A stretch of 32,000 nucleotides of DNA. It comes from Candidatus Lokiarchaeum ossiferum. GTDB taxonomy: Archaea > Asgardarchaeota > Lokiarchaeia > Sigyniarchaeales > Promethearchaeaceae. The stretch spans positions 930,001 through 962,000 of the forward strand of contig CP104013.1 in the NCBI GenBank assembly GCA_025839675.1, written 5' to 3'. Positions 1 through 14,205 of this stretch are shown one piece after another. The notes under the pieces were generated by a model that was given only the letters and a program-made list of their open reading frames with translations, made no database searches and was not told the DNA's origin. How positions within the stretch are numbered: the stretch's first letter is position 1; every line of letters begins with the position of its first letter. Both the position numbers and the translations under genes were made by a program.

Positions 1-1487
1 ATGTGAGTGATAAACTGTATTTTGAAGAATTAAGTCCTGAGCGCGTCTTAGACATTTGCCATAAAGAATATGCCCAAGGATTGATTGTGAGTGTAGGAGG
101 ACAAATTGGGAATAATCTAGCTCAAGAATTTACCAAATATAAGAAAGCTTTCGATGCAACAGGAATAAAAATTTTGGGAACCTTAGGAAAAGATATTGAT
201 AAAGCTGAAAATCGCATGAAATTTGGAAAAATAATGGATTCTTTAGGAATTATTCAACCCCGCTGGGCTCAGCTCTTAGAAATGGAAGATGCCTTAATGT
301 TTGCCAAAAATGTTGAATATCCTGTTTTAGTGCGACCATCATATGTACTCTCTGGAGCAGCCATGCGAGTGGCCACGCGAGAATCAGAACTGAGAGAATA
401 TTTAGAACTTGCAGCAGTAGTTTCCAAAGAAAATCCAGTAGTAATAACCAAATTTTTTACTGATGCACGAGAAATTGAATGTGATGGAGTTGCGGATGGA
501 GAGAATGTGTTCATTGCTGGAGTAGTTGAACATATTGAAAATGCAGGTGTACATAGTGGAGACGCCACTATGAGTCTTCCCGCACCATCACTGCCGTATA
601 AAATGTGGGAAAAAATTCAGCATGAGACACGCAGAATTGCATTAGCTATGGGAGTGCAAGGTCCATTCAACATCCAATATTTAGTAAGAGATAAAAAAAT
701 CTATGTAATTGAAATGAATCTCCGTAGCTCCCGATCCATGCCATATGTAAGTAAAACAATAGGCATGAATCTAATTAAGTTAGCCGCCGAAGTCATCATG
801 GGAGGCAAAATACCCAAACGGTTAATAAAACATTCAATTCCCCCATATGTTTGTATAAAAACCCCTCAATTTTCTTTTATGCGCTTAGAAGGAGCAGATC
901 CAATCTTAGGAGTTGAAATGATGTCGACCGGAGAAGTAGCATGCATTGGTGAAGATTTTCCTGATGCTTTAATTAAAAGTATGATGGCCGCAGAATTCAA
1001 AGTACCACTTGAATGTGGTAATATTTTGATTACAGTTGCCGGGATGGAGTTAAAACAAGCGATTACACCTTTTGCATTACGCTTGGAAGAGTTAGGTTTT
1101 AAAATTTTTGCAACCCCCCACACTGCGGATGTATTCATGGATCAAGGTATTAACGTGGGCATCCTCAATAAAGTAAGTCAAGAAGAAATCAAACCAAATA
1201 TAGTGGATTATATTCTAAAACGCGATTTGGCTTTAGTCATCAATATTCCCCTTGCATCAAACAAAATTCACAGCAATCAGATTTTAGAAGATGAATATCT
1301 TATCCGTAGAAAAGCAATTGAATTCAATATTCCGGTGATAACCAACATCCAGCTTGTCGAAGCATTGGTTGAAGCGATTGAGAATTTGCATGATGCAGGC
1401 ATAACCAGCATAGAAAAATACCATGAAAAAGTATTGATAAAATCTCTTTCTGATTACCATCAATATCTTCGTGAAATATACTGGTAA
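1..1487 (+). CDS. carB: carbamoyl-phosphate synthase large subunit, C-terminal half (5' end cut by window edge)
   Basis: Frame 3 is open from the window start to TAA 1485-1487. The translation shows the second ATP-grasp half (VLVRPSYVLSGAAM, HSGD, EMNLRSSRS) followed by an MGS-like allosteric domain (ILITVAG...ATPHTADV). The apparent GTG 'start' at 3 is internal. Confidence 0.9.
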   Translation, partial: VSDKLYFEELSPERVLDICHKEYAQGLIVSVGGQIGNNLAQEFTKYKKAFDATGIKILGTLGKDIDKAENRMKFGKIMDSLGIIQPRWAQLLEMEDALMFAKNVEYPVLVRPSYVLSGAAMRVATRESELREYLELAAVVSKENPVVITKFFTDAREIECDGVADGENVFIAGVVEHIENAGVHSGDATMSLPAPSLPYKMWEKIQHETRRIALAMGVQGPFNIQYLVRDKKIYVIEMNLRSSRSMPYVSKTIGMNLIKLAAEVIMGGKIPKRLIKHSIPPYVCIKTPQFSFMRLEGADPILGVEMMSTGEVACIGEDFPDALIKSMMAAEFKVPLECGNILITVAGMELKQAITPFALRLEELGFKIFATPHTADVFMDQGINVGILNKVSQEEIKPNIVDYILKRDLALVINIPLASNKIHSNQILEDEYLIRRKAIEFNIPVITNIQLVEALVEAIENLHDAGITSIEKYHEKVLIKSLSDYHQYLREIYW

Positions 1488-1497
1488 TTTTTTTTTA
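1488..1497 (+). terminator. oligo-T tract (T10) immediately after carB stop
   Basis: Ten consecutive T directly follow TAA. Archaeal-type intrinsic termination signals are oligo-T runs. Confidence 0.4.
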
Positions 1498-1540
1498 CAT
1501 TCAATGATTTATTTAGGTTCATAATAACTTATTTGTTTGA

Positions 1541-2446
1541 TTGCATTTGTTGAAAAACGTAACCATCATTGGAGAGAAAAAATCTGTTTATTCCAAGGAT
1601 ATAGCATTCTCTTTTATAACTCCAGATTTTCTCTCAAATTTCATGATTAACATAAATGAAGAAATGACAGCCCGGAAGTATTTCAATCAAGAAACCGTTT
1701 TAGATTTACTTTCAGTTAAGATCATCTGCTATAAAATTTTGGAACCTTTTCCTTTATTCTTTGCCTTAACGTACGATGATTCTATTGTCCCAGAGAAATT
1801 TTATCCAACATTACATTCTGTGATAGAAAAGACCTTGGATTTCTTAAAAGATAAGAAACCCGAAATTTTACAAAAAGAACCAACAGTTTTTAAAAAGCCC
1901 TTTGAGAAACTTGTCGATTTTGCTATGGAAAATAGACCCCCAAAGATATCAATATTGGGATACAATGGTGTTGGCAAAACATCGATCTGTAATTACATTG
2001 AAGGAATAAAGCCTGAAAAGTTATTACCAACAATGAATATTGAACGACATTCATTTCGATTATTCAATATTCCAATAATACTATGGGATTTTTCAGATGA
2101 AATCCCAGAAAACATGGTCCAAAAGTTTCTTTTAGGTTCTGATGCGGTTATAATTGTTCTTGATTCAACCAAAAAAAATGCTAAAGACAGTTTACATCTT
2201 TTAAATTTGACAAAAAAGACCGTCCCACATGCTGAATTAATTATTGTCGGGAATAAACAAGATCAAAAAAAGGCGGAATCAATTGAGAAATTAGAAAAGC
2301 TAATGAATCACCGAATTATACCGTTTAATGCAACAAATTTTGCTAATGCGCGATTAATTCAGGAACAAACCGCTGAATTATTAGAAATATGTTGTGAAGA
2401 ATTAGATTATACTGACGAAAGCTATGTAGTGCAACGAAACGATTAA
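1541..2446 (+). CDS. small Ras/Arf-like GTPase with a roughly 130-aa N-terminal longin/roadblock-like extension
   Basis: The C-terminal half carries G1 GYNGVGKT (about 1958-1981), a candidate G2 Thr in LLPTMN, G4 NKQD (about 2252-2263) and an atypical G3 LWDFSDE (2081-2101). The N-terminal half has a beta-beta-alpha-beta-beta-beta-alpha-like residue pattern. In-frame TGA lies at 1538-1540, so the start must be TTG 1541/1547/1550 or ATG 1643; the start is uncertain. A T8 tract follows the stop. Confidence 0.8.
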   Translation: MHLLKNVTIIGEKKSVYSKDIAFSFITPDFLSNFMININEEMTARKYFNQETVLDLLSVKIICYKILEPFPLFFALTYDDSIVPEKFYPTLHSVIEKTLDFLKDKKPEILQKEPTVFKKPFEKLVDFAMENRPPKISILGYNGVGKTSICNYIEGIKPEKLLPTMNIERHSFRLFNIPIILWDFSDEIPENMVQKFLLGSDAVIIVLDSTKKNAKDSLHLLNLTKKTVPHAELIIVGNKQDQKKAESIEKLEKLMNHRIIPFNATNFANARLIQEQTAELLEICCEELDYTDESYVVQRND

Positions 2447-2454
2447 TTTTTTTT
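2447..2454 (+). terminator. oligo-T tract (T8) after GTPase gene stop
   Basis: Eight consecutive T directly follow TAA 2444-2446. Confidence 0.35.
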
Positions 2455-2629
2455 ATCTTCTTTCCATCTGGCGCCCTATGGATCCATCAGAGTAATGAGG
2501 AAATCATATATTTCTTACCCTAAATTAATTTAATTTAGATTTATGAAACTTTTCCTATCCAATCAGTAAGAAAAAAGATTCATAATATTACTAAAGAAAA
2601 TTCCATTAAAGTTAATTAGGTTAAAATTT

Positions 2630-3436
2630 ATGAGTGAATCAAATATAATGCTTAAAGTTGAACACATATCAAAATCTTTTGAAAATGTGCACGCTGTGAA
2701 TGATTTGTCTTTCAATATTAAAAAAGGAGAAATCTACGGATTACTTGGACCAAATGGAGCGGGAAAAACAACCACAATTAAAATGATTTTGGGTTTATTA
2801 GAACCAAATGAGGGCAATATTGATGTATTAGGACTTCACCCTGAGAGAGATGAGGTAGAATTGAAGAACCGGATTGGTTATGTTTCCGAAGAACCTCTAA
2901 TTTACAAATCACTCACTCCTAAGGAATTGTTTAATTTCATTGCTTCGATTCGAAAGTTGCAAGGAGAACGAGTTTCAGAAAAATTAGCCCAATATTTGGA
3001 TAGTTTGGGGGCGGTAGAATATTATGAGAGATTGATATCGACCCTATCTAGAGGAAACAAACAAAAAATCCAAATCATCGCAGCAATTCTACACGATCCG
3101 GAATTACTAATCATGGATGAGCCTTTAGCAGGTTTAGATGCAAAATCTGTGAAAGTAGTTAAAGAAATTTTGGAATTACATACCCAACGGGGAGGTTCCG
3201 TCTTATTTTCGACGCACATCATGGAAGTTGCAGAAGATCTATGTGATCGAATCGGAATAGTTAATCAAGGAAAACTTGTTGCTGATGGAACAATTGATGA
3301 ATTGCGCGAAAAGGCACAAAAACTTGGTCCAGATTATGATTTAGAAGATATCTTCTTAAAGTTAACAGATCAAGACGAATCGGTAAATGAGATCATTGAA
3401 AAACTTAGAGCAACTATGAATGGAAACCATAAGTAG
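2630..3436 (+). CDS. ABC transporter ATP-binding protein (ABC-2/drug-exporter type)
   Basis: Walker A GPNGAGKTT, signature-like LSRGNKQK, Walker B LLIMDEPLAGLD and H-loop STHIM. The next gene starts 14 nt downstream. Confidence 0.9.
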   Translation: MSESNIMLKVEHISKSFENVHAVNDLSFNIKKGEIYGLLGPNGAGKTTTIKMILGLLEPNEGNIDVLGLHPERDEVELKNRIGYVSEEPLIYKSLTPKELFNFIASIRKLQGERVSEKLAQYLDSLGAVEYYERLISTLSRGNKQKIQIIAAILHDPELLIMDEPLAGLDAKSVKVVKEILELHTQRGGSVLFSTHIMEVAEDLCDRIGIVNQGKLVADGTIDELREKAQKLGPDYDLEDIFLKLTDQDESVNEIIEKLRATMNGNHK

Positions 3437-3450
3437 AGGCATCGAATTCA

Positions 3451-5199
3451 ATGAATAATAAACAATTATACAAAATTTCTAAGTTTGCTTACACGGAGGC
3501 ATTCACACAATCTCAATTGGACATCGCAGGTTCTCAACAGAGCAAAATTTTGGAGAAAATGGAAAAAAATCGAAAATATATGAAGATGCAAAGTATTACC
3601 ATGAAAATTGTTGTAGGTGTTTTCATTGCTCTAATGGTGATTATCCCGATTCAAGCATTCATTAGTATTAGAAGTGCTATTGCTGAAAATATTATCCCCG
3701 AAAGTTATTTGATTTTTGCGGGAAGCATGACGCTAAGTGCTTCGTTTTTAATTCAGATAATGTATCTGATTATGTTTGGGATGTTCTTTGCCTCAAGTTT
3801 ACTTTCAGGCGATTATTTGAAATGGCTTTCTACATTACCCATTGAAATGAAAGATATGCGAAAAATTACAATGATGACATTCTTCCGTGGTATGGATGTA
3901 CAATTTGTTGCTTTGCTACTCGTTCTTCCAATCGGTACCGCCATTATTACTCAAAGTATAGTGCTTACTCTGTTGAGTCTTCTGTTATCGATTATAAATA
4001 TAGTCTTCTCATTTAGCTTACTTGTAATAATTGGAGAAAAAATCAATAGAATCATGAATAATAACGAAGCAAATTCGAAAAAAGCAACTTTTGCACGAAT
4101 GTTTGTTATGCTTTCATATTTGATTGGTTCGATGAGTATGTCCTTGGGATTAAATTTTGCAATGAGATTCATTCCAACATTATTTACCGAAGCAACTTTA
4201 AGCAGTATTCCTTCATCTACTATTAATACCCTTAATCTTATATTCAGCGCCATACCTCTCCCTTTTACGGCAAGTTATTCTTTAGTTGAAGTATTAATCG
4301 TTTTAACAGGAAACGGAGAAATATCTACAACTTTGATTATCACATCTCTTCTCGGATTGCTATTGTTTATTGGATTTACATACATCTTATTAAATAAAGC
4401 ACTTAAACTTCTTACGAATGTTTTTGTTCAGAAATCCAAATCTTTTGATGAAAATGCAAAAAAAACCACTATTGAGGATGTAAAGTTATGTATAGAAGAA
4501 CCAGTGAAAGCATTTTTCCTAAAAGATAGACAAATGATTACTCGAGACATGCAAATGATGATGCTTGTTATCATGCCCATCTTACTTCCATTTATAGGAA
4601 TCGCAACAACGGGATTTGTAGGCGAACAGGGAAATGAAGCCTTATTTGTACTTTTTACTGTGAATATCATCTACTCAGTTCTTTCTGGAGTTATGATTGT
4701 TTGGGGATTATTGAATGTGGAATCAACGGGATCAACAATTCATGCTTCCTTACCAATAACAGTAAGAGATCAAGTGAATGCAAAAGTGAGATGGATTTTC
4801 TTAGTATTGACAATTTCTTCTTTCCTTCCAACCATTTTTATGATTGGAAAAGAATATTTCATAGATTATTTGATAATAACCACTCTATTCTTCCCAATTG
4901 GACCCATCACAGGTATTATTACATTAGAACTAAAAGTTAGATTGTTCGGTAAAATGAAATATAAGTATGTAATAGAAGATGTGAATATTGGTCAGACATT
5001 ACTAAAATGGATCTTAATTGGAGTGGTTGCATTATTGGTGTATATAGGAACGTTTGCAATGGTCATAATCTACATGTCAGAAATGACCGAAGGATATATT
5101 GGAAGGATGGCTACAATCATTCTTCCAATTGAAGCAACAGTCAGTGCATTATTATACTTCATCTATAATAAAATGTTCCCTAAACCTAAGATTTTCTAG
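3451..5199 (+). CDS. polytopic membrane protein, putative permease partner of the upstream ABC ATPase
   Basis: 582 aa with many long hydrophobic segments throughout. GAGG lies about 12 nt upstream of the ATG, and the gap to the ATPase stop is 14 nt. There is no recognisable catalytic motif. It is much larger than a typical roughly 250-aa ABC-2 permease. Confidence 0.75.
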   Translation: MNNKQLYKISKFAYTEAFTQSQLDIAGSQQSKILEKMEKNRKYMKMQSITMKIVVGVFIALMVIIPIQAFISIRSAIAENIIPESYLIFAGSMTLSASFLIQIMYLIMFGMFFASSLLSGDYLKWLSTLPIEMKDMRKITMMTFFRGMDVQFVALLLVLPIGTAIITQSIVLTLLSLLLSIINIVFSFSLLVIIGEKINRIMNNNEANSKKATFARMFVMLSYLIGSMSMSLGLNFAMRFIPTLFTEATLSSIPSSTINTLNLIFSAIPLPFTASYSLVEVLIVLTGNGEISTTLIITSLLGLLLFIGFTYILLNKALKLLTNVFVQKSKSFDENAKKTTIEDVKLCIEEPVKAFFLKDRQMITRDMQMMMLVIMPILLPFIGIATTGFVGEQGNEALFVLFTVNIIYSVLSGVMIVWGLLNVESTGSTIHASLPITVRDQVNAKVRWIFLVLTISSFLPTIFMIGKEYFIDYLIITTLFFPIGPITGIITLELKVRLFGKMKYKYVIEDVNIGQTLLKWILIGVVALLVYIGTFAMVIIYMSEMTEGYIGRMATIILPIEATVSALLYFIYNKMFPKPKIF

Positions 5200-5208
5200 C
5201 AAGGGTTA

Positions 5209-5225
5209 TTTTTTTTTCATTTTTT
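5209..5225 (+). terminator. oligo-T tracts (T9, T6) after permease stop
   Basis: The sequence ttttttttt ca tttttt begins 10 nt after TAG 5197-5199. Confidence 0.4.
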
Positions 5226-5317
5226 CTGAGAAGTTTTAGTTTAATCGATTGAAGCTTCTTACTCAGTAAAATATTTAAATTTAAAAAGTTGTTTATCCTA
5301 GTATTGGAGCAATTTCT

Positions 5318-6391
5318 ATGCAAAAATTAATTCTTGTTAATTGGGATATGCAACTTGGACCTCGAACCTTAGTTCAATTTCCTCCCGAAGAAAATTTCCC
5401 ACCAAAAGAAGTTCTCTTAAAAATTTGGGCCCAACATGAAATTAATCCTAAAAAATACTTTATTTCCTATTATGATAACGAGCAGGATAAGTATTATTGC
5501 TCCTATTTAAAGAAACAAATTAGAACCATTAAGACCTATTTCATTGTGTTAGAACTGTCTCCAGAAGATGATGAGCGAATTTTTCAAGAGATCTTGGACA
5601 ACATTGCGGAAGATTTAATTAACAAGATTGATCATCCTCATTTTAACCACGTATTGTCTGAAACATATCGAATTGTTAAAACCTATTCTGATCTTGACCA
5701 AGAACAATTATTTTTAAGATTATTTGAGGATAAAGTGAGATCGGACATTTTTTCAATATTAAGAAATGGGGTTCTCACGAAAAAGCAATTGAAATCTAAG
5801 TTAGAAGATTTATATGGTTACTCTGATTTGAATGTAGATCTTCTCTTAACTCCCTTCATACGATTAGGATTAATTCAAATAAATAATATCCCCGGTTCTC
5901 CAGATTCCCTTTTCTTGGTAAATGATGTTTATTCTTGTTTCTTACCTCCAAAAGAAAAACCTAATACAGATATAATTCGAGATGTAATAACTCAACGGTA
6001 TATGTCACCTAAGATCATTCCAAATGAAGATTTACAACCCCTAATGCATTTATATCAAGAACCAGGAGTTAAAGAACTCATTTCATTATTGAATGAAGAT
6101 ATTCACAACGGTATGCCTTATGAAATCGCACTCACGGTTTTAAAGAATAAAGAAGACACAATTGAACAATTGGAAAAGCACAATATTGTTTTTGTTCACA
6201 ATAAGAAAAGAATTTATCTCATAAGTCAATTGAATTTCATTAAATTCGTACCGACATATTTAATCTCAATTCTAGCTAAAAGATATCAAAAAAGTGAAAT
6301 ATCTTTAGATCAATTAGTTCAACAATTGGATTACATAAAATTAACAGATATGGAAAACACTTTGGGAGCAAATTGGAACCGGATCTATTAG
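5318..6391 (+). CDS. hypothetical protein: N-terminal longin-like domain plus two winged-helix-like segments (NPRL2/FLCN-type architecture suspected)
   Basis: ATG is preceded by GGAG at about -13. The N-terminus LILVNWDMQLGPRTLVQFPPEENF fits the 'strand - GP - strand - P' signature of FLCN/NPRL2/DENN-type longin domains, followed by a beta-beta-alpha-beta-beta-beta-alpha pattern. Later segments (IFSILRNGVLTKKQLKSKL...FIRLGLIQI; YEIALTVLKNKEDTIEQLEKHNIVFV) look like wHTH units. Function is not established. Confidence 0.7.
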   Translation: MQKLILVNWDMQLGPRTLVQFPPEENFPPKEVLLKIWAQHEINPKKYFISYYDNEQDKYYCSYLKKQIRTIKTYFIVLELSPEDDERIFQEILDNIAEDLINKIDHPHFNHVLSETYRIVKTYSDLDQEQLFLRLFEDKVRSDIFSILRNGVLTKKQLKSKLEDLYGYSDLNVDLLLTPFIRLGLIQINNIPGSPDSLFLVNDVYSCFLPPKEKPNTDIIRDVITQRYMSPKIIPNEDLQPLMHLYQEPGVKELISLLNEDIHNGMPYEIALTVLKNKEDTIEQLEKHNIVFVHNKKRIYLISQLNFIKFVPTYLISILAKRYQKSEISLDQLVQQLDYIKLTDMENTLGANWNRIY

Positions 6392-6446
6392 GATTCCTAT
6401 GATAACAAAATTGATATAAAATTATTTAGCTATGAAATAATTCCCA

Positions 6447-6455
6447 TTTTTTTTT
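6447..6455 (+). terminator. oligo-T tract (T9) downstream of 5318-6391 gene
   Basis: Nine consecutive T lie about 55 nt after the stop. Confidence 0.3.
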
Positions 6456-6549
6456 CTAGAATTTACGAAAAATTTTTGAAATGTAAATATATTAGTGCTT
6501 CTCTCATTTAAAATACTTGAAATCCACTTGATTAAAAAATAGGATTATT

Positions 6550-8067
6550 ATGGATATTTATCGGTCGTTTGTAGAGAATTTTCATGGAATTGCATTTAGA
6601 AGATTACTAAATGACAAAATCGTTCTTTTCGAAGGTATGGTTAAAGAAATTTCTGGTTATGATAAAGAAGAATTCATGAATAAAAAAATTACGTGGAAAA
6701 AACTAATGCATCCAGATGATCTAGAAAGATTATCCGAAAATATCCATAGATTACATGTAATTAGAAATTATTCTACAGAACGCGAATATAGGATCAAAAC
6801 TAAAAATGGAAAAATGAAATGGATTCATGAGAATTTGCGTAGAATTGATGAAAAAAACCAAATATATATTGAAGGAACTATTGTAGATATCTCAAAAATG
6901 AAAAATGCGGAACTTCAATTACGAGAGAGTGAAGTAAAGAGAAGCGAAGAGCAAATGCAAAAAGAAAAATTGGAATCGATAGCCCTTTTGGCGGGTGGTA
7001 TTGCCCATGACTTCAATAATATCTTAACTTCCGTATTAGGAAATTTAGAATTAATGCAGATGGAATCTTTAGAGGGCGAAACCCAATTACTCCTAACTGA
7101 AACATTGCAAGCAACTCATAGAGCCACAAATCTTACACAACAACTTTTAACTTTTTCAAAAGGGAAAAAACCAATAAAAAAAACAGAGTCCATAATCCAA
7201 ATCTTAGATGAAGCATCCTCTTTTGTTCTTCGAGGCTCAAATTGCAAAACTCAATGTATTTTTGAAGATTTAATCCCTCCCATTAATGTAGATGCAAATC
7301 AAATTTTACAAGTCATTAATAACTTGTTAATCAATGCAAAACAAGCCATGGAAAAAGGAGGTATTATAACAATAAGCTGCTCAACAATAGATATTAATCG
7401 GATTGATACAATTCCCCTTCCTTTTGGTAAATATCTTAAAATTGCAATTAAAGATACTGGAAAAGGCATTCCAAAGGAAATTCAATCAAAAATCTTTCAA
7501 CCTTATTTTACTACAAAATCTAGAGGATCTGGTTTAGGGCTTGCAACGAGCTACTCGGTGATAAAAAACCACAATGGTCACATTAACTTTCAATCAACAA
7601 AAGGAGTTGGGACAGTTTTTAACATATTTTTGCCTGTCTGGGATGAAGCTTTTGTGATAGAAGAAAAACGTAATGAAAATTCTATACTTCCTGAGAATAT
7701 GAAAGTACTTGTAATGGATGATGATAAAGCCATTCATCGGATGTTGTCACGAATTTTTAAGCGCTACAAATATCGGATGGATTCAACTTATGCTGGGGAA
7801 GAAGCAATAGAATTATATAACCAAGCTCTTCTAGAAAACACTCCTTATGATCTGGTAATAATGGATTTAACTATTCCAGCAGGTCTCGGAGGTGAAGCCA
7901 CTGCAGGAGAAATTCTTAGAATTAATCCCGATGCGAAAATGATTGTTTCTAGTGGTTATTCAAACAATGAAATTTTAGCAAATTATAAAAAATATGGATT
8001 CCAAGCAATTCTAAAAAAACCCTACACAGTTGAAGATTTGCGAAAAGTTATAAACATAATAAGTTGA
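6550..8067 (+). CDS. hybrid sensor histidine kinase (PAS - HisKA - HATPase_c - receiver), no TM segment
   Basis: PAS-like N-terminus (YRIKTKNGKMKWIHENL...EGTIVDISKMK), coiled linker, H-box GGIAHDFNNILTSVLGNLEL, N-box NNLLINAKQAM, G1 IKDTGKGIP, F-box FQPYFTTK and G2 GSGLGLATSY. The C-terminal REC domain shows VLVMDDD...DLVIMDLTIP...KKP. Confidence 0.9.
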   Translation: MDIYRSFVENFHGIAFRRLLNDKIVLFEGMVKEISGYDKEEFMNKKITWKKLMHPDDLERLSENIHRLHVIRNYSTEREYRIKTKNGKMKWIHENLRRIDEKNQIYIEGTIVDISKMKNAELQLRESEVKRSEEQMQKEKLESIALLAGGIAHDFNNILTSVLGNLELMQMESLEGETQLLLTETLQATHRATNLTQQLLTFSKGKKPIKKTESIIQILDEASSFVLRGSNCKTQCIFEDLIPPINVDANQILQVINNLLINAKQAMEKGGIITISCSTIDINRIDTIPLPFGKYLKIAIKDTGKGIPKEIQSKIFQPYFTTKSRGSGLGLATSYSVIKNHNGHINFQSTKGVGTVFNIFLPVWDEAFVIEEKRNENSILPENMKVLVMDDDKAIHRMLSRIFKRYKYRMDSTYAGEEAIELYNQALLENTPYDLVIMDLTIPAGLGGEATAGEILRINPDAKMIVSSGYSNNEILANYKKYGFQAILKKPYTVEDLRKVINIIS

Positions 8068-8118
8068 TTTGAAATTCTGATGGAAAATCATATTAAAAAG
8101 TGCAATTTATTTTAAATT

Positions 8119-11100
8119 TCAAATTAGATTAATCCGTGCATAGGAAAGAAAATTAGCATTAATCAGCAATTTACGATGCTTTTTTAATCGTTTTAGTTGT
8201 TGGGGTACATCAAATTCCAGATTTTCCAAAATTTGCGACCATCTTTCAATTTCATTCTCATAATATTGAACTTCTTTCTCAACCCGCATAAATTGTTTAA
8301 TACGTCGCTTTTTACGGACAGGATCACTAAGTTGATCTAGATTCTGTCGCTGTCGTTCAGTCGGAAGTTTAAGTTTTTTAGCTCTTAAGGCATTTTCGGT
8401 CAGTTTCATTTGGGTTTCTGCAAATTTTTTCTTAAAATTGGCATTTTTTAGCACTCTCATCTTTTGGGAGAGGTATTTTTCTTTATTCAATTTAATCAAT
8501 CTTTGTGCTTTTTCAGAGATCTGATTTTTTGTTGATTGTTTTGCACTTTCCAAGCACCTTTCCAATTTTTCACGAGATATGGATAAGTGTGCTAGATCCA
8601 AAGAAGGAGCATTAAATTGTAATATCTTTGCAAAATTATGAGGTTTAGAAATAAATCGTCCCAAAATAGGTAAAAGTTCCAAATCATCTGTTATAAAGAT
8701 GGGAATAACACTTTTTTCAATAATAACCCCAAGAAATTCAATTTCGAATAAGAATAAATTTAATCCAACTTCGAACCGTAGCAGACGTTTGAAAATATCC
8801 AATTCATCTTTGGGAATCCGGCTCCCATAAGGATAAATAAATAATGAGGCCCATTGTTTTATATCAATTGTCAGCTGGCATGAATTTCCACCAAAATCAC
8901 TTTTTTGAGACCAATCAATTAAATTCATAACCAATGGATGACCTAATGAAAAGAAGTCAAATTCTTCTTGTTTCCGAGCCAAATCAATATCAAAAACGCC
9001 TTCATATCTCCGATGTGGAATACGAAGAGTTCGACGTAAAGCTTCTGAAAATTTAATGAGCCAAACTCCTATATCATGAGGTTTTTGAACAAGATTCAAA
9101 TCCATCTGAAACTCAGGATATTGAATTCGAAAATTGGGATCATTTGTCACGTATCGGACAAAGATATCTAAAAAAATGTGAATATCAATCCCCGTTAAGA
9201 GTTCTTTCTTGGAAAGATCCCGTGAGATATAATCATATTGAAATGATCTTTTATCTAAAATGAGATCTTCTAATTTATCATATACTTCATCAATTTTATT
9301 ACTGGTTTTGGAGATCACTTCATCTAATCTAAATTTCATTGGTGATTCATCTTCCTTTAAAACCAGAGAAGTTATTTGTCCTTCTAAACTCCCCAAAATA
9401 GGCTCTAATGCGCCAATAGACTCTTCGAAGAGATGAATACGTTCTGAAATTGCAGTGATAATGGAAGATTCGACAGTATCTTTGATATAAAAATTAAAAA
9501 TGAGAATATCTTTTGTTTGCCCAAAACGATCTAATCTTCCAATTCGTTGTTCCAATCTCATAGGATTCCAAGGTAAATCATAATTTACAATGATATGACA
9601 GAATTGGAAATTTCTCCCTTCCCCACCAATTTCAGTAGAAAGCAAAATCGGTATATCATGTCGAAAAGAAGAAACTGAAGCCATTTTTTGAGATTCAGTT
9701 AAATCTCCATGAAATGGAGCAACTTTTATCCCTTCTTTTTCAATTAAATCTTGAAGATAAAATAGTGTTTTTTTAAATTGGGTAAAAATAATGAATTTTT
9801 CTTTAGGATCCGTTTTTATAACTGATTTTACTATCTCAAGCAATCGTGAAGCTTTGGAATCATAGTCTAAAGATTCCAAATCTTGTACAAATTCCTTAAG
9901 AATTCGTATATGTTCATTGATATCTAAAGAAGGTCCTTTCTTCTTAGGGATCATTTTTCTTTTCCTTGCTTGAATAACCATCCGATCTTCTACATCCAAT
10001 TCATCTAGTCCCCAAGCGAGATCCATGCTAGATTCGTCTTCAGTAAATTCTCGTTGAGCTTCTTGTTCCATCCCAAGTTTTAAAAGTGTCTCTTTATTTT
10101 CTTCCAAATACAAAATTCTTTTTTTTAAACTTTTTAAAATCGCCGGAACCGAACTAGTCAAGAGTTTCTGTAAAATAACCATAACAAAACCCATCCCCGA
10201 GGGTCCCGTTTCGTAATTTTGAGAATAAATTTTGGCGAGATATAGATGAATTTTGTTATATACCTCTAATTCATCTTTAGTGAGATCTACATCAATTATT
10301 TGAGGGATTCTCTTAATAGGATTATCAGGAAAAACAACTCTTCTCCTATTTCGGATGACATACCGGCTTAAGAAATGTCTTTTCTCCAATTTTGCAATAA
10401 TTTCTCTCCGAAAAGATTCAAAACGTAGTTTTTCATTTAATTCCGTTTCTGTGATCTTTATATGGAAGGATTGAATTTGATAAACCAATGCATCTCGTTC
10501 ATAGGAATTAATACTCGTGAAAAGTTGCAGATTTTTTACAACCAAATTAAGTAAAGAAATTTTCTTCCGTTCTGCTTCAAAGGAATCAAAATTAGGAAAT
10601 TCATAGGGGTTTAAAAGTTGGATCAAGGAAAATAAGTCAAAGGAATGCAATTGGATGGGAGTAGCAGTCAATAATAATAAACTTCGTGTTTTTGCAGACA
10701 AATTTTGTGCCAACTCATAAGCCAAGGTTGTTCGGTATTGTTCAGTTTTTTGATTGGCGAGATATCTTCGAAGATGATGTGCTTCATCAAAAATTACAAT
10801 ATCCCACTCAATACGTGTTAACAACTTGGCACATTGTGGTAGTCGCGCGTATTGTAATGTTACAGTACATAAGGTCAAATCTTGGCCAGTTTGGGAATTA
10901 AAAAAATTACCAGATTGATAGTTGATCTTCAAGTTTTTTACAATTTTTGATTTCAATCGAGTAAATTTTATATTAAATTTGTTTTCCAATTCAAACTCCC
11001 ATTGACCTACAATAGAAGCGGGAGTGATAATCAGTACACGCGTAGCCAAATTTCGTGCAATCATTTCTTTGACATAGATCCCTGCTTCAATAGTTTTTCC

Positions 11101-11862
11101 CAAACCAACTTCATCAGCTAAAATGTATCGGGCTTGACCAATATCCAATAAATGATGTGCAACAGCGATCTGGTGTGGAAGCAGAGAAAGACGTGAATGA
11201 GTAATAATTTTCAAGAGATTGCTTGTATAGAGTGAATATATTTGAGCACCCCAGTACCGTAACAAAAATTGATATGTTCCATCTTGATTTCCCTTTAAAA
11301 ATTCGTTCAATGGGGATTCAAGCTCACTAATAATATCTATTTCGGCAACAGTTTTTTTTGTTCCATCAGGGAGTAATAATGTATAATGGATTAAACCTGT
11401 GGGATGCGCTAAATTTCGACCAATTATAACACCAATTCCATCTTTAAAGCGAATTTCTTTATCCAGATCCCAAAGAAAATGAGAAATATCTTCTCTAAAG
11501 AGAGGTTTTTCTAAAAAAGCTGTAAATTCTACCAAAAATTGGTTGAATTTCTTTTTATCAATTAAAGAAAGAAGATCTTTATCGGAATTTCCTTCAAAAG
11601 ATATAATTTTATTAGATTTTTTATGAGATTGGGCATGGAAAAGAGTTGGATTCGATTCATTAGTAGATTTTGCTTTTATTGGAATAATATCAGTAATTCT
11701 ACCAATACCAAGTTCGGTTCGCTGTGGACAATGCACTCTGTTGCCTACAATAAAGACATGACTTCTGCAATCTTTATTAGAACACCTTTCTACCTTAAGT
11801 CCATAGGTTTTTGCTAACGGTGAATGACAATAGGGACACACATTGAAATTAGATTTGATCAA
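8119..11862 (-). CDS. SNF2-family (RapA/HepA-like) ATPase with N-terminal zinc ribbon and long C-terminal extension
   Basis: Motif I ILADEVGLGKTIEAG (encoded about 11081-11125), motif II FDEAHHLR, LLLTATPIQ, and helicase-C motifs LLSTEIGGEGRNFQ...NYDLPWNPMRLEQRIGRLDRFGQ. The N-terminus has CPYC...CSNKDC...HCPQ. About 430 aa follow the helicase core and end in a Lys/Arg-rich coiled coil. The only possible start that includes the zinc ribbon is TTG 11862-11860. Confidence 0.9.
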   Translation of the reverse strand: MIKSNFNVCPYCHSPLAKTYGLKVERCSNKDCRSHVFIVGNRVHCPQRTELGIGRITDIIPIKAKSTNESNPTLFHAQSHKKSNKIISFEGNSDKDLLSLIDKKKFNQFLVEFTAFLEKPLFREDISHFLWDLDKEIRFKDGIGVIIGRNLAHPTGLIHYTLLLPDGTKKTVAEIDIISELESPLNEFLKGNQDGTYQFLLRYWGAQIYSLYTSNLLKIITHSRLSLLPHQIAVAHHLLDIGQARYILADEVGLGKTIEAGIYVKEMIARNLATRVLIITPASIVGQWEFELENKFNIKFTRLKSKIVKNLKINYQSGNFFNSQTGQDLTLCTVTLQYARLPQCAKLLTRIEWDIVIFDEAHHLRRYLANQKTEQYRTTLAYELAQNLSAKTRSLLLLTATPIQLHSFDLFSLIQLLNPYEFPNFDSFEAERKKISLLNLVVKNLQLFTSINSYERDALVYQIQSFHIKITETELNEKLRFESFRREIIAKLEKRHFLSRYVIRNRRRVVFPDNPIKRIPQIIDVDLTKDELEVYNKIHLYLAKIYSQNYETGPSGMGFVMVILQKLLTSSVPAILKSLKKRILYLEENKETLLKLGMEQEAQREFTEDESSMDLAWGLDELDVEDRMVIQARKRKMIPKKKGPSLDINEHIRILKEFVQDLESLDYDSKASRLLEIVKSVIKTDPKEKFIIFTQFKKTLFYLQDLIEKEGIKVAPFHGDLTESQKMASVSSFRHDIPILLSTEIGGEGRNFQFCHIIVNYDLPWNPMRLEQRIGRLDRFGQTKDILIFNFYIKDTVESSIITAISERIHLFEESIGALEPILGSLEGQITSLVLKEDESPMKFRLDEVISKTSNKIDEVYDKLEDLILDKRSFQYDYISRDLSKKELLTGIDIHIFLDIFVRYVTNDPNFRIQYPEFQMDLNLVQKPHDIGVWLIKFSEALRRTLRIPHRRYEGVFDIDLARKQEEFDFFSLGHPLVMNLIDWSQKSDFGGNSCQLTIDIKQWASLFIYPYGSRIPKDELDIFKRLLRFEVGLNLFLFEIEFLGVIIEKSVIPIFITDDLELLPILGRFISKPHNFAKILQFNAPSLDLAHLSISREKLERCLESAKQSTKNQISEKAQRLIKLNKEKYLSQKMRVLKNANFKKKFAETQMKLTENALRAKKLKLPTERQRQNLDQLSDPVRKKRRIKQFMRVEKEVQYYENEIERWSQILENLEFDVPQQLKRLKKHRKLLINANFLSYARINLI

Positions 11863-11943: not shown

Positions 11944-14205
11944 TTATTCATTTGATTGCCAAAGATCATATTCTTTGAAAATATCATCAATTTGATTGAT
12001 AGCACGATTTATTTTCCTTGCAACCCGCTTATCAAAAGTTTCATTTATAATATCTTGCAGTTTCAAGCCGTACTCATCAGTAATTTCCATAAGATTCATA
12101 AGATCATTACGCGAAATTCCTTCTTTCATCACAGCAATAACAATTTCATCCAATTTCTGTTTTAAAAGTTCTGTATTAGATCGAGATTTTTGAGAATTTA
12201 CTAATAACTGGGAAATACGGAGTTGAAGTGCTTTTTCTTCGTCACTTAATTTTTTAGCCCCTTCTTCTATCAACCTGTCGGAAGCTAAGCGAACAACTCG
12301 ATTATAGATTTCAATCGATTTTTCCAATATTTGACTACACTCAATGGGATTATAAAATCTACGCAACCGAGCTTCACATACTTTTAGATAAGCACTATCG
12401 TATAAAATTTCGATATTTCCAAAATCACTTTCTTCCCACAAAGCATCGATTTTCATAAATAATTCTTGCAATTGGGCATAAGGGGCACTAGTTGTTATTT
12501 TTCCAAGATCTTCTTGAAATTCTACCGATTTATTCAATAATTTTTGAGCCCTTTTTTCTACTACCAATAAATTTTTTTGATGTGCCTTAGCCATAATCCA
12601 AATAAATTTATTTACCGCCCGATCGATAAGTTTTTCTGCTTTTTTAGGCTTTAATACTAAAATATCTTTCGCATCTTGAATAAGCTGAACACCATCATCA
12701 AGTGCGAGTTCTACTTCAAAAAAGAAATCAAAAAACGTGATTTGAGCACGTTCTCGGAGAATAAGATCTTTATCATAGCTATCCTTAACCACACTTTTCA
12801 TAGAGATATACCAAAAAATGGCAGAGGGAATCCAGAAAAGAATACCCATGTATAACATATTTTTATAGGAGCCTAAAAGCTGTAACAACCCAGCAGCAAT
12901 CAATAAAGTTATACTTTTTCCAATCTGCTCGGTTAATTGAAAAAATGAAGTCGCAGTCCCTCGATGTTCAGGCAAATTCACATCAATCATCACCGCATTT
13001 TTGTTTGTAACCATACCTGCAGAAAAAAATGTTCCAAAGAAGGAAAATATCAGATAGGTAATATATTTCGGATAAGTAGTAAATATGGCTTTCATTGTTT
13101 CAAACATGAAAAAAACTTGATCTTCAGGAGCAATTGATTCTGGATATGTGATACCAAGTTGTGTTAGGGACACAGGTTCAAGTTGAAAAATCATTAAAAA
13201 TACTAGTGGAATGGCAATAACATTGGTGATAAATGCAAGTAATGCTCTATATTGCCGCTTTTTTTTATATACAATATCCCCCAGCCAGGATAACACGATG
13301 CTACCCAACATATATCCAGCACTCGTCATTCCAGCCATGATTGTTGATACCTGAGTGCGAATATCTCCAGGAAGTTCTCGAAACATACCTTCTGTGGAAT
13401 GGGAAAAGGTCATAATTAAAGAAAAAATGATAATAGTTCCTGGTACAATCGAAAAAAACCCATTTATGATTAAAGCTTTATTCGTCCGTTTATGAAGCAA
13501 GTTAAAAAGTTCTTTCTGATTGATTTTATATCCATATTCCATCTCCTCAAATTCATTAACCCTTGATAAACTTTCTTCTTTGGATCCCATTGCAGGAAGT
13601 TTTACAAAGAAAAGCATAATAGTAATGATAATTGCAAGAATTGTTAGAATTAAAAAGGGAAATTGCCACCCATATTGTAATAATCCAAGAGAGACAAATA
13701 TATTAAGAGGACCCAAAAATGCAGACAAAAATTGACCCAAACCATTACTAATCGCAGAAAATATTGCTAAGAACCCAAATAAACCCGCACGTTCTTCTGA
13801 AGGAATTATATCACTTAAAACTGAATAAGCCACAGGTAATGCAAAACCTAAACCCGCTCCAGTTAAAATTCGTGCAAACAATAACTGAAGAAAATTTTGA
13901 CAAAATGCAGTTCCAATAAAACCTATAACGGCTAAAAAGGCACCCCCAATAATAATTTTATTTCTATCAATTCGATCTGTGTAGTATCCCCATAAAATCA
14001 TGATGAAAGCTGAGATTAAAACCGATAAAGAATCAGGCAAGTAAATCAAAGAATTTTTTATTCCAAAATCTTCAATAATCGGTGAATAAGAAGGAATAAG
14101 TACATTTAATGAACTAGTATATAATAATAAAAGTAATAAAACCAGTATTATGACATTTAACTCATTTTTGGAATATTTTTCACGCAGCGGAGTCATTTTT
14201 TTCAT
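11944..14205 (-). CDS. MFS transporter fused to a roughly 280-aa C-terminal soluble alpha-helical domain
   Basis: The N-terminal roughly 470 aa are polytopic, with MFS motif A (GYYTDRIDRNK) between early TM segments. Residues about 471-753 (DNA about 11947-12795) are hydrophilic, helix-prone and K/E/L/Q-rich, with no TM segment. ATG at 14205 (alternative ATG at 14196). Confidence 0.85.
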   Translation of the reverse strand: MKKMTPLREKYSKNELNVIILVLLLLLLYTSSLNVLIPSYSPIIEDFGIKNSLIYLPDSLSVLISAFIMILWGYYTDRIDRNKIIIGGAFLAVIGFIGTAFCQNFLQLLFARILTGAGLGFALPVAYSVLSDIIPSEERAGLFGFLAIFSAISNGLGQFLSAFLGPLNIFVSLGLLQYGWQFPFLILTILAIIITIMLFFVKLPAMGSKEESLSRVNEFEEMEYGYKINQKELFNLLHKRTNKALIINGFFSIVPGTIIIFSLIMTFSHSTEGMFRELPGDIRTQVSTIMAGMTSAGYMLGSIVLSWLGDIVYKKKRQYRALLAFITNVIAIPLVFLMIFQLEPVSLTQLGITYPESIAPEDQVFFMFETMKAIFTTYPKYITYLIFSFFGTFFSAGMVTNKNAVMIDVNLPEHRGTATSFFQLTEQIGKSITLLIAAGLLQLLGSYKNMLYMGILFWIPSAIFWYISMKSVVKDSYDKDLILRERAQITFFDFFFEVELALDDGVQLIQDAKDILVLKPKKAEKLIDRAVNKFIWIMAKAHQKNLLVVEKRAQKLLNKSVEFQEDLGKITTSAPYAQLQELFMKIDALWEESDFGNIEILYDSAYLKVCEARLRRFYNPIECSQILEKSIEIYNRVVRLASDRLIEEGAKKLSDEEKALQLRISQLLVNSQKSRSNTELLKQKLDEIVIAVMKEGISRNDLMNLMEITDEYGLKLQDIINETFDKRVARKINRAINQIDDIFKEYDLWQSNE

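Follow-up and report, generated by a model that had tools for sequence, protein, structure and literature searches.

Within a 32,000-nucleotide window of the 'Candidatus Lokiarchaeum ossiferum' genome (contig CP104013.1, positions 930,001 to 962,000), the forward-strand open reading frame (ORF) at 5318..6391 encodes a protein, hereafter the target, for which we propose a role in holding a small GTPase. Our best explanation, to which we assign a probability of about one half, is that the target is a cytoplasmic, non-enzymatic GTPase-docking adaptor belonging to an Asgard archaeal family that combines an NPRL2-like longin domain with tandem winged helices. A first-pass annotation made from the sequence alone had described an NPRL2/FLCN-type longin protein with two winged helices, and this interpretation proved right in kind, although overstated with regard to family membership, the neighbouring GTPase and the weight given to a prokaryotic homologue.

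The ORF is exactly as first annotated, with an ATG start, 357 codons plus stop and the N-terminus MQKLILVNWDMQLGPRTLVQFPPEENFPPKE / MQKLILVNWDMQLGPRTLVQFPPEE, and its length is indeed near that of NPRL2 (357 versus 380 aa). Its product matches NEF87_000754, a protein annotated as hypothetical in 'Ca. Lokiarchaeum ossiferum', at 100% identity. Thirteen other full-length orthologues with matching N-termini were identified at 44-87% identity, all from Lokiarchaeia/Promethearchaeota and including DSAG12_03114 of Promethearchaeum syntrophicum; the resulting 14-sequence alignment contains 53 invariant columns, among them G14, P15, Q20-F21-P22-P23-E24 and K65. Given that the orthologues are full-length and that 53 columns are invariant, the target represents a real gene under selection. 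Single-protein searches of Pfam, NCBIfam and PDB sequences with the target returned nothing relevant, and neither locus tag, NEF87_000754 or DSAG12_03114, was found in the literature or supplements searched.

An AlphaFold2 model generated from the 14-sequence alignment reached a mean predicted local distance difference test score (pLDDT) of 88 and a predicted TM score of 0.82, residues 343-357 being the sole stretch with a pLDDT below 50. In this model, residues 1-108 (5318..5641; all segments given here lie on the forward strand) adopt the beta-beta-alpha-beta-beta-beta-alpha order that the first-pass annotation had anticipated downstream of the N-terminal motif (strands 3-10 and 14-21, helix 30-42, strands 48-53, 58-66 and 73-80, helix 86-102), and on the strength of the model and its Foldseek longin matches this segment folds as a longin domain of the DENN/FLCN/NPRL2 kind. 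The first ground for refutation named in the first-pass annotation, the lack of a longin fold in residues 1-110, therefore does not apply. Two elements of the domain are central to the argument below: the beta1-beta2 hairpin W9-D10-x3-G14-P15...P22-P23 (residues 9-23, 5342..5386), a candidate GTPase-contact face, and the beta4-beta5 loop (residues 65-72, 5510..5533), which occupies the position of the Arg78 finger of NPRL2. A helical linker follows (residues 109-138, 5642..5731; helices 109-125 and 128-135), leading into winged helix 1 (residues 139-209, 5732..5944), whose unit comprises helices 128-135, 139-148, 155-166 and 173-182 and a three-stranded wing (strands 186-209). An inter-domain linker containing two helices (residues 210-250, 5945..6067) connects it to winged helix 2 (residues 251-312, 6068..6253), whose unit comprises helices 236-246, 251-260, 268-274 and 279-287 and wing strands 291-310. 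Both units are modelled as alpha4-beta2/3 winged helices, as initially proposed, and the segment SDLNVDLLLTPFIRLGLIQINNI, which had been singled out as winged-helix-like, lies in unit 1, where it spans helix 3 and the first strand of the wing. Two terminal helices (residues 313-342) finish the fold, and together with the low-confidence tail (residues 343-357), shared only with genus-level relatives, they make up the C-terminal part (6254..6388).

When the full-length model was searched against the PDB with Foldseek, the best match had an E-value of 3.4e-3, none passed 1e-3, and the TM score was ~0.27, a low value that is expected because the target consists of several domains that are flexibly packed. 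The top matches were nonetheless GATOR1 chains with 363-370 modelled residues, 9o5d_D (E 3.4e-3, probability 0.96, 354 columns) and 9v0j_A, followed by chain I of the FLCN-FNIP2 complex, yeast Npr2 (8adl_S), DENND10 and the crystal structure of a Lokiarchaeota longin (8yqg); DENND1A/B, the Lst4 longin, 7t3b_B (another NPRL2-sized GATOR1 chain, ranked after Lst4) and C9orf72 (7o2w_A) occupied lower ranks. From their size we infer that the matching GATOR1 chains are NPRL2, which is confirmed to be present in those entries, and chain I is presumably FNIP2, since FLCN was identified as chain H. DENN proteins aligned to the longin part only, over 115-134 columns. The comparison with GATOR1 and FLCN-FNIP structures suggested in the first-pass annotation thus returned both complexes at the head of the ranking, at weak significance.

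A separate model of residues 126-357 (pLDDT 87) superimposed on SrnR, HlyU, ArsR-family proteins and STIV F93 with root-mean-square deviations of 2.1-2.8 A over ~74 residues (probability 0.96-0.99), with weaker matches to tandem winged-helix proteins, namely MukE, the C-terminal domain of Stn1, ESCRT-II and Pyrococcus PF0095. When a hidden Markov model (HMM) of the family was searched against the PDB, its positions 244-320 matched the winged helices of PH1932 (E 1.3e-3), TFE and MarR/ArsR proteins, and some family members match Pfam HTH_20, HTH_5 and HTH_24. Modelling therefore confirms a winged-helix fold of a generic type for the C-terminal half, though not a specific tie to the NPRL2 C-terminal domain.

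Within the longin domain, the beta1-beta2 hairpin was the only segment aligned by hhalign and hmmsearch, in register with NPRL2 and SMCR8 (SMCR8 LISEFSEQVGPQPLLTIPNDT versus target LVNWDMQLGPRTLVQFPPEEN, alongside NPRL2; 21 residues). The reference sequences for these comparisons were checked against PDB chains: NPRL2 agreed at 380/380 positions (6ces_N), FLCN residues 1-214 were identical (6ulg_L), C9orf72 residues 1-148 matched in full, and SMCR8 carried one mismatch, which was corrected. The NPRL2 and FLCN strings quoted in the first-pass annotation were likewise accurate when compared with these chains. The glycine-proline (GP) hairpin of the target is in register with those of NPRL2, SMCR8 and C9orf72, and it most closely resembles the last (WDMQLGPR versus WDNILGPR, 6/8 identical), with W9-D10-x3-G14-P15-R16 spaced as W33-D34-x3-G38-P39-R40 of C9orf72; this is a motif-level correspondence whose HMM score is non-significant. 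In the ARF1-bound structure of C9orf72-SMCR8-WDR41, C9orf72 W33 and D34 are ARF1-interface residues, and the W33G/D34K substitution nearly abolishes GTPase-activating protein (GAP) activity (PMC8213707). Furthermore, the GP motif has been described as specific to GAP-type longins (SMCR8, C9orf72, FLCN and NPRL2) together with some Asgard longins, the latter retaining an arginine finger (PMC12290439).

These features raise the question of whether the target could itself be a catalytic GAP subunit like NPRL2, FLCN or SMCR8, with an arginine finger in its longin domain acting on a Rag- or Arf-like GTPase. NPRL2 is the top full-length fold match, the GP motif reported for GAP longins (PMC12290439) is invariant among the orthologues, and at the family level operons are formed with Arf-like GTPases possessing a canonical DxxGQ motif. 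The catalytic residue, however, is not where it would be expected: in the loop spanning residues 65-72 no arginine is conserved (K65 is invariant, R69 occurs in 2/14 orthologues, and K, Q or R is found at position 72), and none was conserved at the position of NPRL2 R78 across an alignment of 67 full-length family members. Hairpin position 12, which is R or K in 57% of the wider family, could supply an alternative finger, but this residue is Q in the target. Moreover, the nearby GTPase lacks the switch II glycine and the glutamine that a GAP normally assists, and profile-level homology to NPR2 or Folliculin was not detected. We therefore consider a catalytic role improbable. Since no arginine finger is conserved, the adaptor reading assigns the target a holding role comparable to that of C9orf72, NPRL3 or FNIP rather than that of NPRL2, FLCN or SMCR8.

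The charge of the winged helices bears on a second alternative, in which the target is a transcription regulator whose longin-like (GAF/PAS-like) sensor controls two DNA-binding winged helices, possibly in conjunction with an SNF2 helicase or a hybrid kinase. The winged helices match those of ArsR/SmtB, MarR and TFE; Pfam HTH_5, HTH_20 and HTH_24 matches and NCBI winged helix-turn-helix (HTH) names occur among family members; the HTH part falls in asCOG category K; GAF and LOV-HTH proteins appear among the weak Foldseek matches; an SNF2 helicase is the sole universally conserved neighbour of the gene; and a PAS-histidine kinase-response regulator gene lies directly downstream. Yet the protein is acidic (isoelectric point 5.0-5.6), and in the 14 orthologues the net charge of helix 3 is 0 in winged helix 1 and averages -1.3 in winged helix 2, with -1.6 in the first wing, values that serve as a sequence proxy and not as electrostatics. 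DNA binding is accordingly disfavoured, both putative recognition helices and the first wing being zero or negative in net charge in all 14 orthologues. The SNF2 gene is convergent and not co-transcribed with the target, the histidine kinase is confined to one genus, and what the family is joined with in operons and fusions are GTPases and membrane proteins rather than products of DNA-related genes. The winged helices of ESCRT-II serve protein contacts. Those of eukaryotic NPRL2/3 likewise make protein contacts (PMC8534245). Taken together, we regard a transcriptional role as unlikely, and under the adaptor reading the acidic winged helices would act as protein-protein modules, as in NPRL2/NPRL3, rather than as DNA readers.

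Searched exhaustively with a profile, a set of 1.84 billion representatives yielded a family that comprises at least 186 clusters at E<=1e-3, with 120 reaching E<=1e-10. Named members and 80 genomic loci, the latter gathered with a 10-member alignment subset, span Loki-, Thor-, Hel-, Hod-, Odin-, Jord-, Frey-, Atabey-, Baldr-, Hermod- and Njordarchaeia, and NCBI names for these proteins are either 'hypothetical' or 'winged helix-turn-helix domain-containing protein'. Two metagenome-assembled genomes (MAGs) with typical family members carry non-Asgard labels (L016, JAPDJY010000037.1, Thermoproteota; L020, DATKTP010000243.1, Deferrimicrobium), the first bearing a Jordarchaeia-type GTPase operon; both are probably mis-binned or mis-classified Asgard contigs. 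Among the 67 full-length members, the hairpin is strongly conserved (W9 85%, D10 81%, G14 66/67, P22 67/67), as are H40 and S62 (91%). P15 is present in just 46% of these sequences, and the full GP motif therefore marks a subgroup that includes the target.

This family very probably corresponds to the asCOG class described as 'NPRL2-like longin domain + HTH domain'. The two share organisms, a two-part architecture and the GP motif, and a TPR-fused variant exists in both sets (P0051 among the family matches here, ORTHOMCL196 in the published set). The target itself is only a candidate for cog.008476 / cog.006472, with ORTHOMCL724, 'HTH domain + uncharacterized protein', as an alternative. NPRL2-like longin proteins have been reported in most Thorarchaeial and a few Lokiarchaeial MAGs, along with other asCOGs containing NPRL2-like longin domains (Liu et al.); the study describing L. 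ossiferum reported the organism to be enriched in eukaryotic signature proteins with an 'NPRL2-like longin domain', and a published table lists the longin + HTH architecture in both cultured Lokiarchaeia. The weight that the first-pass annotation gave to a prokaryotic homologue is accordingly overstated, such longins having already been catalogued in Asgard archaea.

Genomic-neighbourhood analysis revealed a link between this family and longin-bearing Arf-like GTPases. The family HMM and small-GTPase seeds were run against the ORFs called in 87 sequences, made up of the window and 86 loci, and the count was confined to family genes followed by no less than 2.6 kb of sequence, 69 in all. For 45 of these 69 genes, in Thor-, Jord-, Frey- and Hermodarchaeia, an Arf-like GTPase gene on the same strand begins no more than 2 kb downstream, compared with a background of 31 of 964 other ORFs (3.2%). 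A GTPase association in gene-neighbourhood statistics, the absence of which the first-pass annotation had counted towards refutation, is thus borne out for the wider family.

Two organizations of the pair were distinguished. In the Jordarchaeial and Freyarchaeial group, including the mis-binned 'Thermoproteota' MAG, the genes are separated by 13-41 nt and the GTPase has 279-284 aa; a Baldrarchaeial locus (L039), with shorter downstream sequence and thus outside the 69, encodes a 275-aa GTPase with a 3-nt overlap. Pairs of this type (L016, L019, L021-L024, L026-L028 and L039) place the family gene at ~7001-8080 and the GTPase gene at ~8056-8973 on the same strand. In Thor- and Hermodarchaeia the partner is longer (516-683 aa), the first ~270 residues having the same architecture and being followed by an acidic tail; in Thorarchaeia-type pairs (L034-L085) the family gene lies at 7001-8140 and the GTPase-fusion gene starts at ~8450-9700, again on the same strand. 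A protein of ~110-120 aa usually follows the GTPase gene of the pair.

The partner GTPases possess a canonical P-loop, DxxGQ (WDLAGQERF) and NKQD motifs. Profile comparison finds a weak similarity to the family longin in their N-terminal ~110-130 residues (hhalign E 2e-3, 79 columns), consistent with the Asgard Arf/Rag-like GTPases already known to carry an N-terminal longin domain (PMC10933270, PMC11914678). No description of a longin-winged helix/Arf-like GTPase operon was found in the literature searched.

In the window, a candidate partner is encoded at 1541..2446 on the forward strand, 2.9 kb upstream of the target: an Arf/Rag-like GTPase of 301 aa (Pfam Arf, 1.2e-11), Arf/Roc/Ras-like overall, with an N-terminal extension of ~135 aa that is longin-like by pattern. 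Residues 4-266 align to the operon-partner GTPases of Jordarchaeia (E 4.5e-20). For the extension taken alone, detectable homology to those of the operon partners was considered and not upheld, phmmer and profile searches giving no match at E<=10 and hhalign an E-value of only 0.01. The P-loop (GYNGVGKT) and NKQD motifs are present, but switch II is degenerate (WDFSDE), lacking both the DxxG glycine and the glutamine, and the pattern WD[FIY][SP]D[EQ] is found in all 33 Lokiarchaeial homologues, which suggests that this GTPase is hydrolysis-deficient or otherwise atypical. The first-pass annotation had drawn attention to an atypical small GTPase a few kb away; the Arf assignment and the degenerate switch II agree with this, whereas the gene is a conserved neighbour within a single genus only.

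The adaptor reading can be set out as follows. The target longin would pair edge-to-edge with a second longin, which may be another copy of itself, a paralogue, or the N-terminus of a longin-GTPase such as that encoded at 1541-2446. This pair would form a two-longin platform on which a GTPase domain could be seated, with the WD/GP hairpin touching the GTPase switch region. The target might in this way tether or regulate a GTPase, possibly at a membrane protein, without catalysing GTP hydrolysis.

A number of results weigh against this reading. The window GTPase, with its degenerate switch II, may not cycle at all. A GTPase near the target orthologue occurs only within the genus Lokiarchaeum, at L091, with none within 8 kb at L001-L004, and none of the five loci of the target's orthologue group has a downstream GTPase. 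Orthologues of the window GTPase were also sought beside family members elsewhere in Lokiarchaeia and were found at none of four loci. This pattern agrees with the report that, in general, GTPase genes of MK-D1/Promethearchaeum do not share an operon with genes for longin or roadblock proteins (PMC10933270). Related Thorarchaeia, moreover, account for many of the 45 positive loci, which therefore do not represent independent events; the link nonetheless spans several class-level lineages. The PDB fold matches are weak, and NPRL2/3 chains are absent from the top 50 fold matches of residues 126-357. At the sequence level, the profile searches for NPR2 and Folliculin suggested in the first-pass annotation recovered no such membership: the target matches neither Pfam NPR2 nor Folliculin at E<=10, and none of the 67 family members matches NPR2 at E<=1. 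Orthologue, 67-member and longin-only profiles searched against the PDB retrieved no NPRL2/Npr2, FLCN, SMCR8 or C9orf72 at E<=10, returning winged-HTH matches or nothing, and the longin profile forced onto the longins of NPRL2, C9orf72, FLCN and SMCR8 gave E-values of 58-180 at PDB scale. Comparison by hhalign with a vertebrate NPRL2 alignment yielded E-values of 0.34 for the full length and 0.038 for the C-terminal domain, at a probability below 2%, against an NPRL2 profile that is shallow (vertebrate-only, effective sequence number 1.4, only vertebrates being among the 120 homologues listed). The proposal of an NPRL2/FLCN-type longin with winged helices is upheld in layout, fold and GP hairpin, but not in family membership or in the arginine finger.

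A broader and more tentative possibility is that the longin-winged helix family as a whole supplies the Asgard Arf/Rag-like GTPases with their missing native partner or regulator. It would pair through its longin with the N-terminal longin of the GTPase encoded beside it and apply the C9orf72-type WD/GP hairpin to the switch region, and GATOR1, FLCN-FNIP and C9orf72-SMCR8 would owe their two-longin platform to a prokaryotic precursor of this kind. The copy in Lokiarchaeum, together with its switch-II-degenerate GTPase, would then be a derived, hydrolysis-independent and maybe membrane-coupled version.

The family showed a further association, with membrane proteins. Nine family members (P0045, P0069, P0074, P0076, P0077, P0082, P0085, P0090 and P0109) are fusions comprising a giant LamG/Ig-like ectodomain and one transmembrane helix, with the longin-winged helix module ~100 residues later. 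Also identified were Odin, Njord, Atabey and LC30 loci in which the family gene lies directly 5' of a gene for a 1468-1602-aa type-I membrane protein (L005 9595-14253; L006 2773-7581 and 9180-13589; L012, L029 and L030). These membrane proteins possess a signal/anchor segment, weak Ig/invasin-like matches, one transmembrane helix and an E/K-rich cytoplasmic tail. The Njord locus contains two tandem cassettes of family gene plus membrane protein, the second family copy being recognised by hhalign at E 1.5e-65. We interpret the fusions as a Rosetta-stone link of the family to surface proteins, and because of these fusion and gene-pair arrangements the longin-winged helix module is taken to be cytoplasmic and able to work while attached to membrane proteins.

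On this evidence, the target might instead be a cytoplasmic adaptor for transporters or giant surface proteins, whose cytoplasmic tails it would couple to further machinery, whether or not a GTPase takes part. Besides the fusions and gene pairs, an ATP-binding cassette (ABC) ATPase and a 12-transmembrane permease precede the target in L. ossiferum, its sister species and P. syntrophicum, and in eukaryotes the recruitment of longin GAP complexes depends on membrane proteins of the lysosome (PMC12290439). The orthologue group of the target, however, has no giant membrane-protein neighbour, and the ABC pair is missing in L002-L004. We judge this alternative rather unlikely as an explanation in its own right, although it is compatible with the GTPase-docking adaptor and does not exclude it.

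Closer examination of the target's neighbourhood showed all window genes from position 3 to 8067 on the forward strand: the 3' end of carB, the GTPase, the ABC ATPase (2630-3436; Pfam ABC_tran, 8.7e-32), the 12-transmembrane permease (3451-5199; Pfam 12TM_1, 1.2e-8), the target, and a PAS-HisKA-HATPase-receiver hybrid histidine kinase identified from its Pfam domains (6550..8067). Beyond 8067 lie a convergent SNF2-family helicase of 1247 aa (8119..11862, reverse strand; Pfam SNF2-rel_dom and Helicase_C), a major facilitator superfamily (MFS) transporter of 753 aa (11944-14205, reverse strand), a PadR gene and a gene for a protein with two transmembrane segments; no DEPDC5-like gene was seen in the window. 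The order is identical in the sister species (87% identity, L091), GTPase included. In a relative at 71% identity (L092) the kinase is kept and the contig stops before the GTPase position. The P. syntrophicum locus (L001) retains the ABC/12-transmembrane pair upstream of the orthologue, with GTPase and kinase absent; in the three Lokiarchaeial loci L002-L004, carA-carB lies directly upstream and the ABC pair is absent.

The hybrid kinase was found only at loci of the genus Lokiarchaeum (also L091 5848-7365 and L092 2632-4155) and is absent from L001-L004. Its adjacency to the target might be functional by analogy with NPRL2-like longin domains fused to two-component domains (Liu et al.). A PAS histidine kinase lying beside a GTPase orthologue at L088 was considered as an orthologue of the window kinase and rejected, the kinase cores being no more than 28% identical.

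Of all the neighbours, the convergent SNF2 gene alone is conserved beside every orthologue examined, at L001-L004, L091 and L092 (L001 9010-12654; L002 9022-12783; L003 9030-12860; L091 7418-11200; L092 4177-7920). These helicases are ~1250 aa long with an N-terminal zinc-ribbon-like CxxC region, are arranged tail-to-tail with the target orthologues, and in two genomes overlap the orthologue's 3' end with their own 3' end by 7-13 nt. In L001, a 524-aa reverse transcriptase (RVT_1; 6273-7847, reverse strand) is inserted between the permease gene and the target orthologue, and probably derives from a group II intron or retroelement. The MFS transporter carries a charged, helix-like C-terminal extension of ~280 aa that is kept in the P. 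syntrophicum (757 aa) and L002 (675-744 aa) loci. A conserved 198-aa protein without a Pfam match is encoded on the reverse strand upstream of the carA or ABC genes (L001 2386-2982; L002 2458-3054; L003/L004 2433-3029), and the seeds used did not pick it up as a GTPase.

NPRL2-like longins are a recognised class of Asgard eukaryotic signature proteins, and the target alone leaves this picture unchanged. The useful part of these results is the comparative context, namely the tight pairs that family genes form with longin-Arf-like GTPase genes on the same strand across Thor-, Jord-, Frey-, Baldr- and Hermodarchaeia, given that regulators of Asgard Arf GTPases have been stated to be unidentified (PMC11914678). 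Together with residues W9/D10 and G14/P15, the family pairs provide an avenue for testing whether longin-platform control of small GTPases predates eukaryotes.

NPRL2/NPRL3 (yeast Npr2/Npr3; GATOR1/SEACIT; PF06218) are among the known systems that come close to the target. The target resembles NPRL2 in size and in possessing a longin whose beta2 begins with G-P, with a proline eight residues further on (G14/P22 versus G20/P28), and the C-terminal repeated alpha4-beta2 winged HTH, combined with a longin, is the published NPRL2/NPRL3 architecture (PMC3747258); NPRL2 also gives the best full-length PDB fold match. In contrast to NPRL2, the target has neither an NPR2 profile match nor an equivalent of the Arg78 finger, and its C-terminal domain alone fails to retrieve NPRL2/3. 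It also differs from GATOR1 in having no DEPDC5 or GATOR2 context and in belonging to a family limited to Asgard archaea. The published GP-motif Asgard longins (PMC12290439) differ in the same respect as NPRL2, keeping the arginine finger that is absent from the target.

In the ARF GAP C9orf72-SMCR8-WDR41, C9orf72 is the longin-DENN subunit that is not catalytic; it shares the WDxxLGPR hairpin with the target, likewise has no arginine finger of its own, and contributes its longin to the fold matches, while the wider target family is genomically tied to Arf-like GTPases. Unlike C9orf72, FLCN and SMCR8, the target has two winged helices and not a DENN domain in its C-terminal half; there is no significant sequence match to C9orf72 outside the hairpin, and no SMCR8-like or WDR41-like partner was identified. 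With longin/roadblock platforms more generally, such as the Rag GTPase roadblock dimers with Ragulator, MglB-MglA and Asgard longin-GTPase fusions, the proposed arrangement would have in common a two-domain platform carrying a GTPase, but it would be distinguished by a family subunit bearing two winged helices and by a putative pairing with the longin of the GTPase itself.

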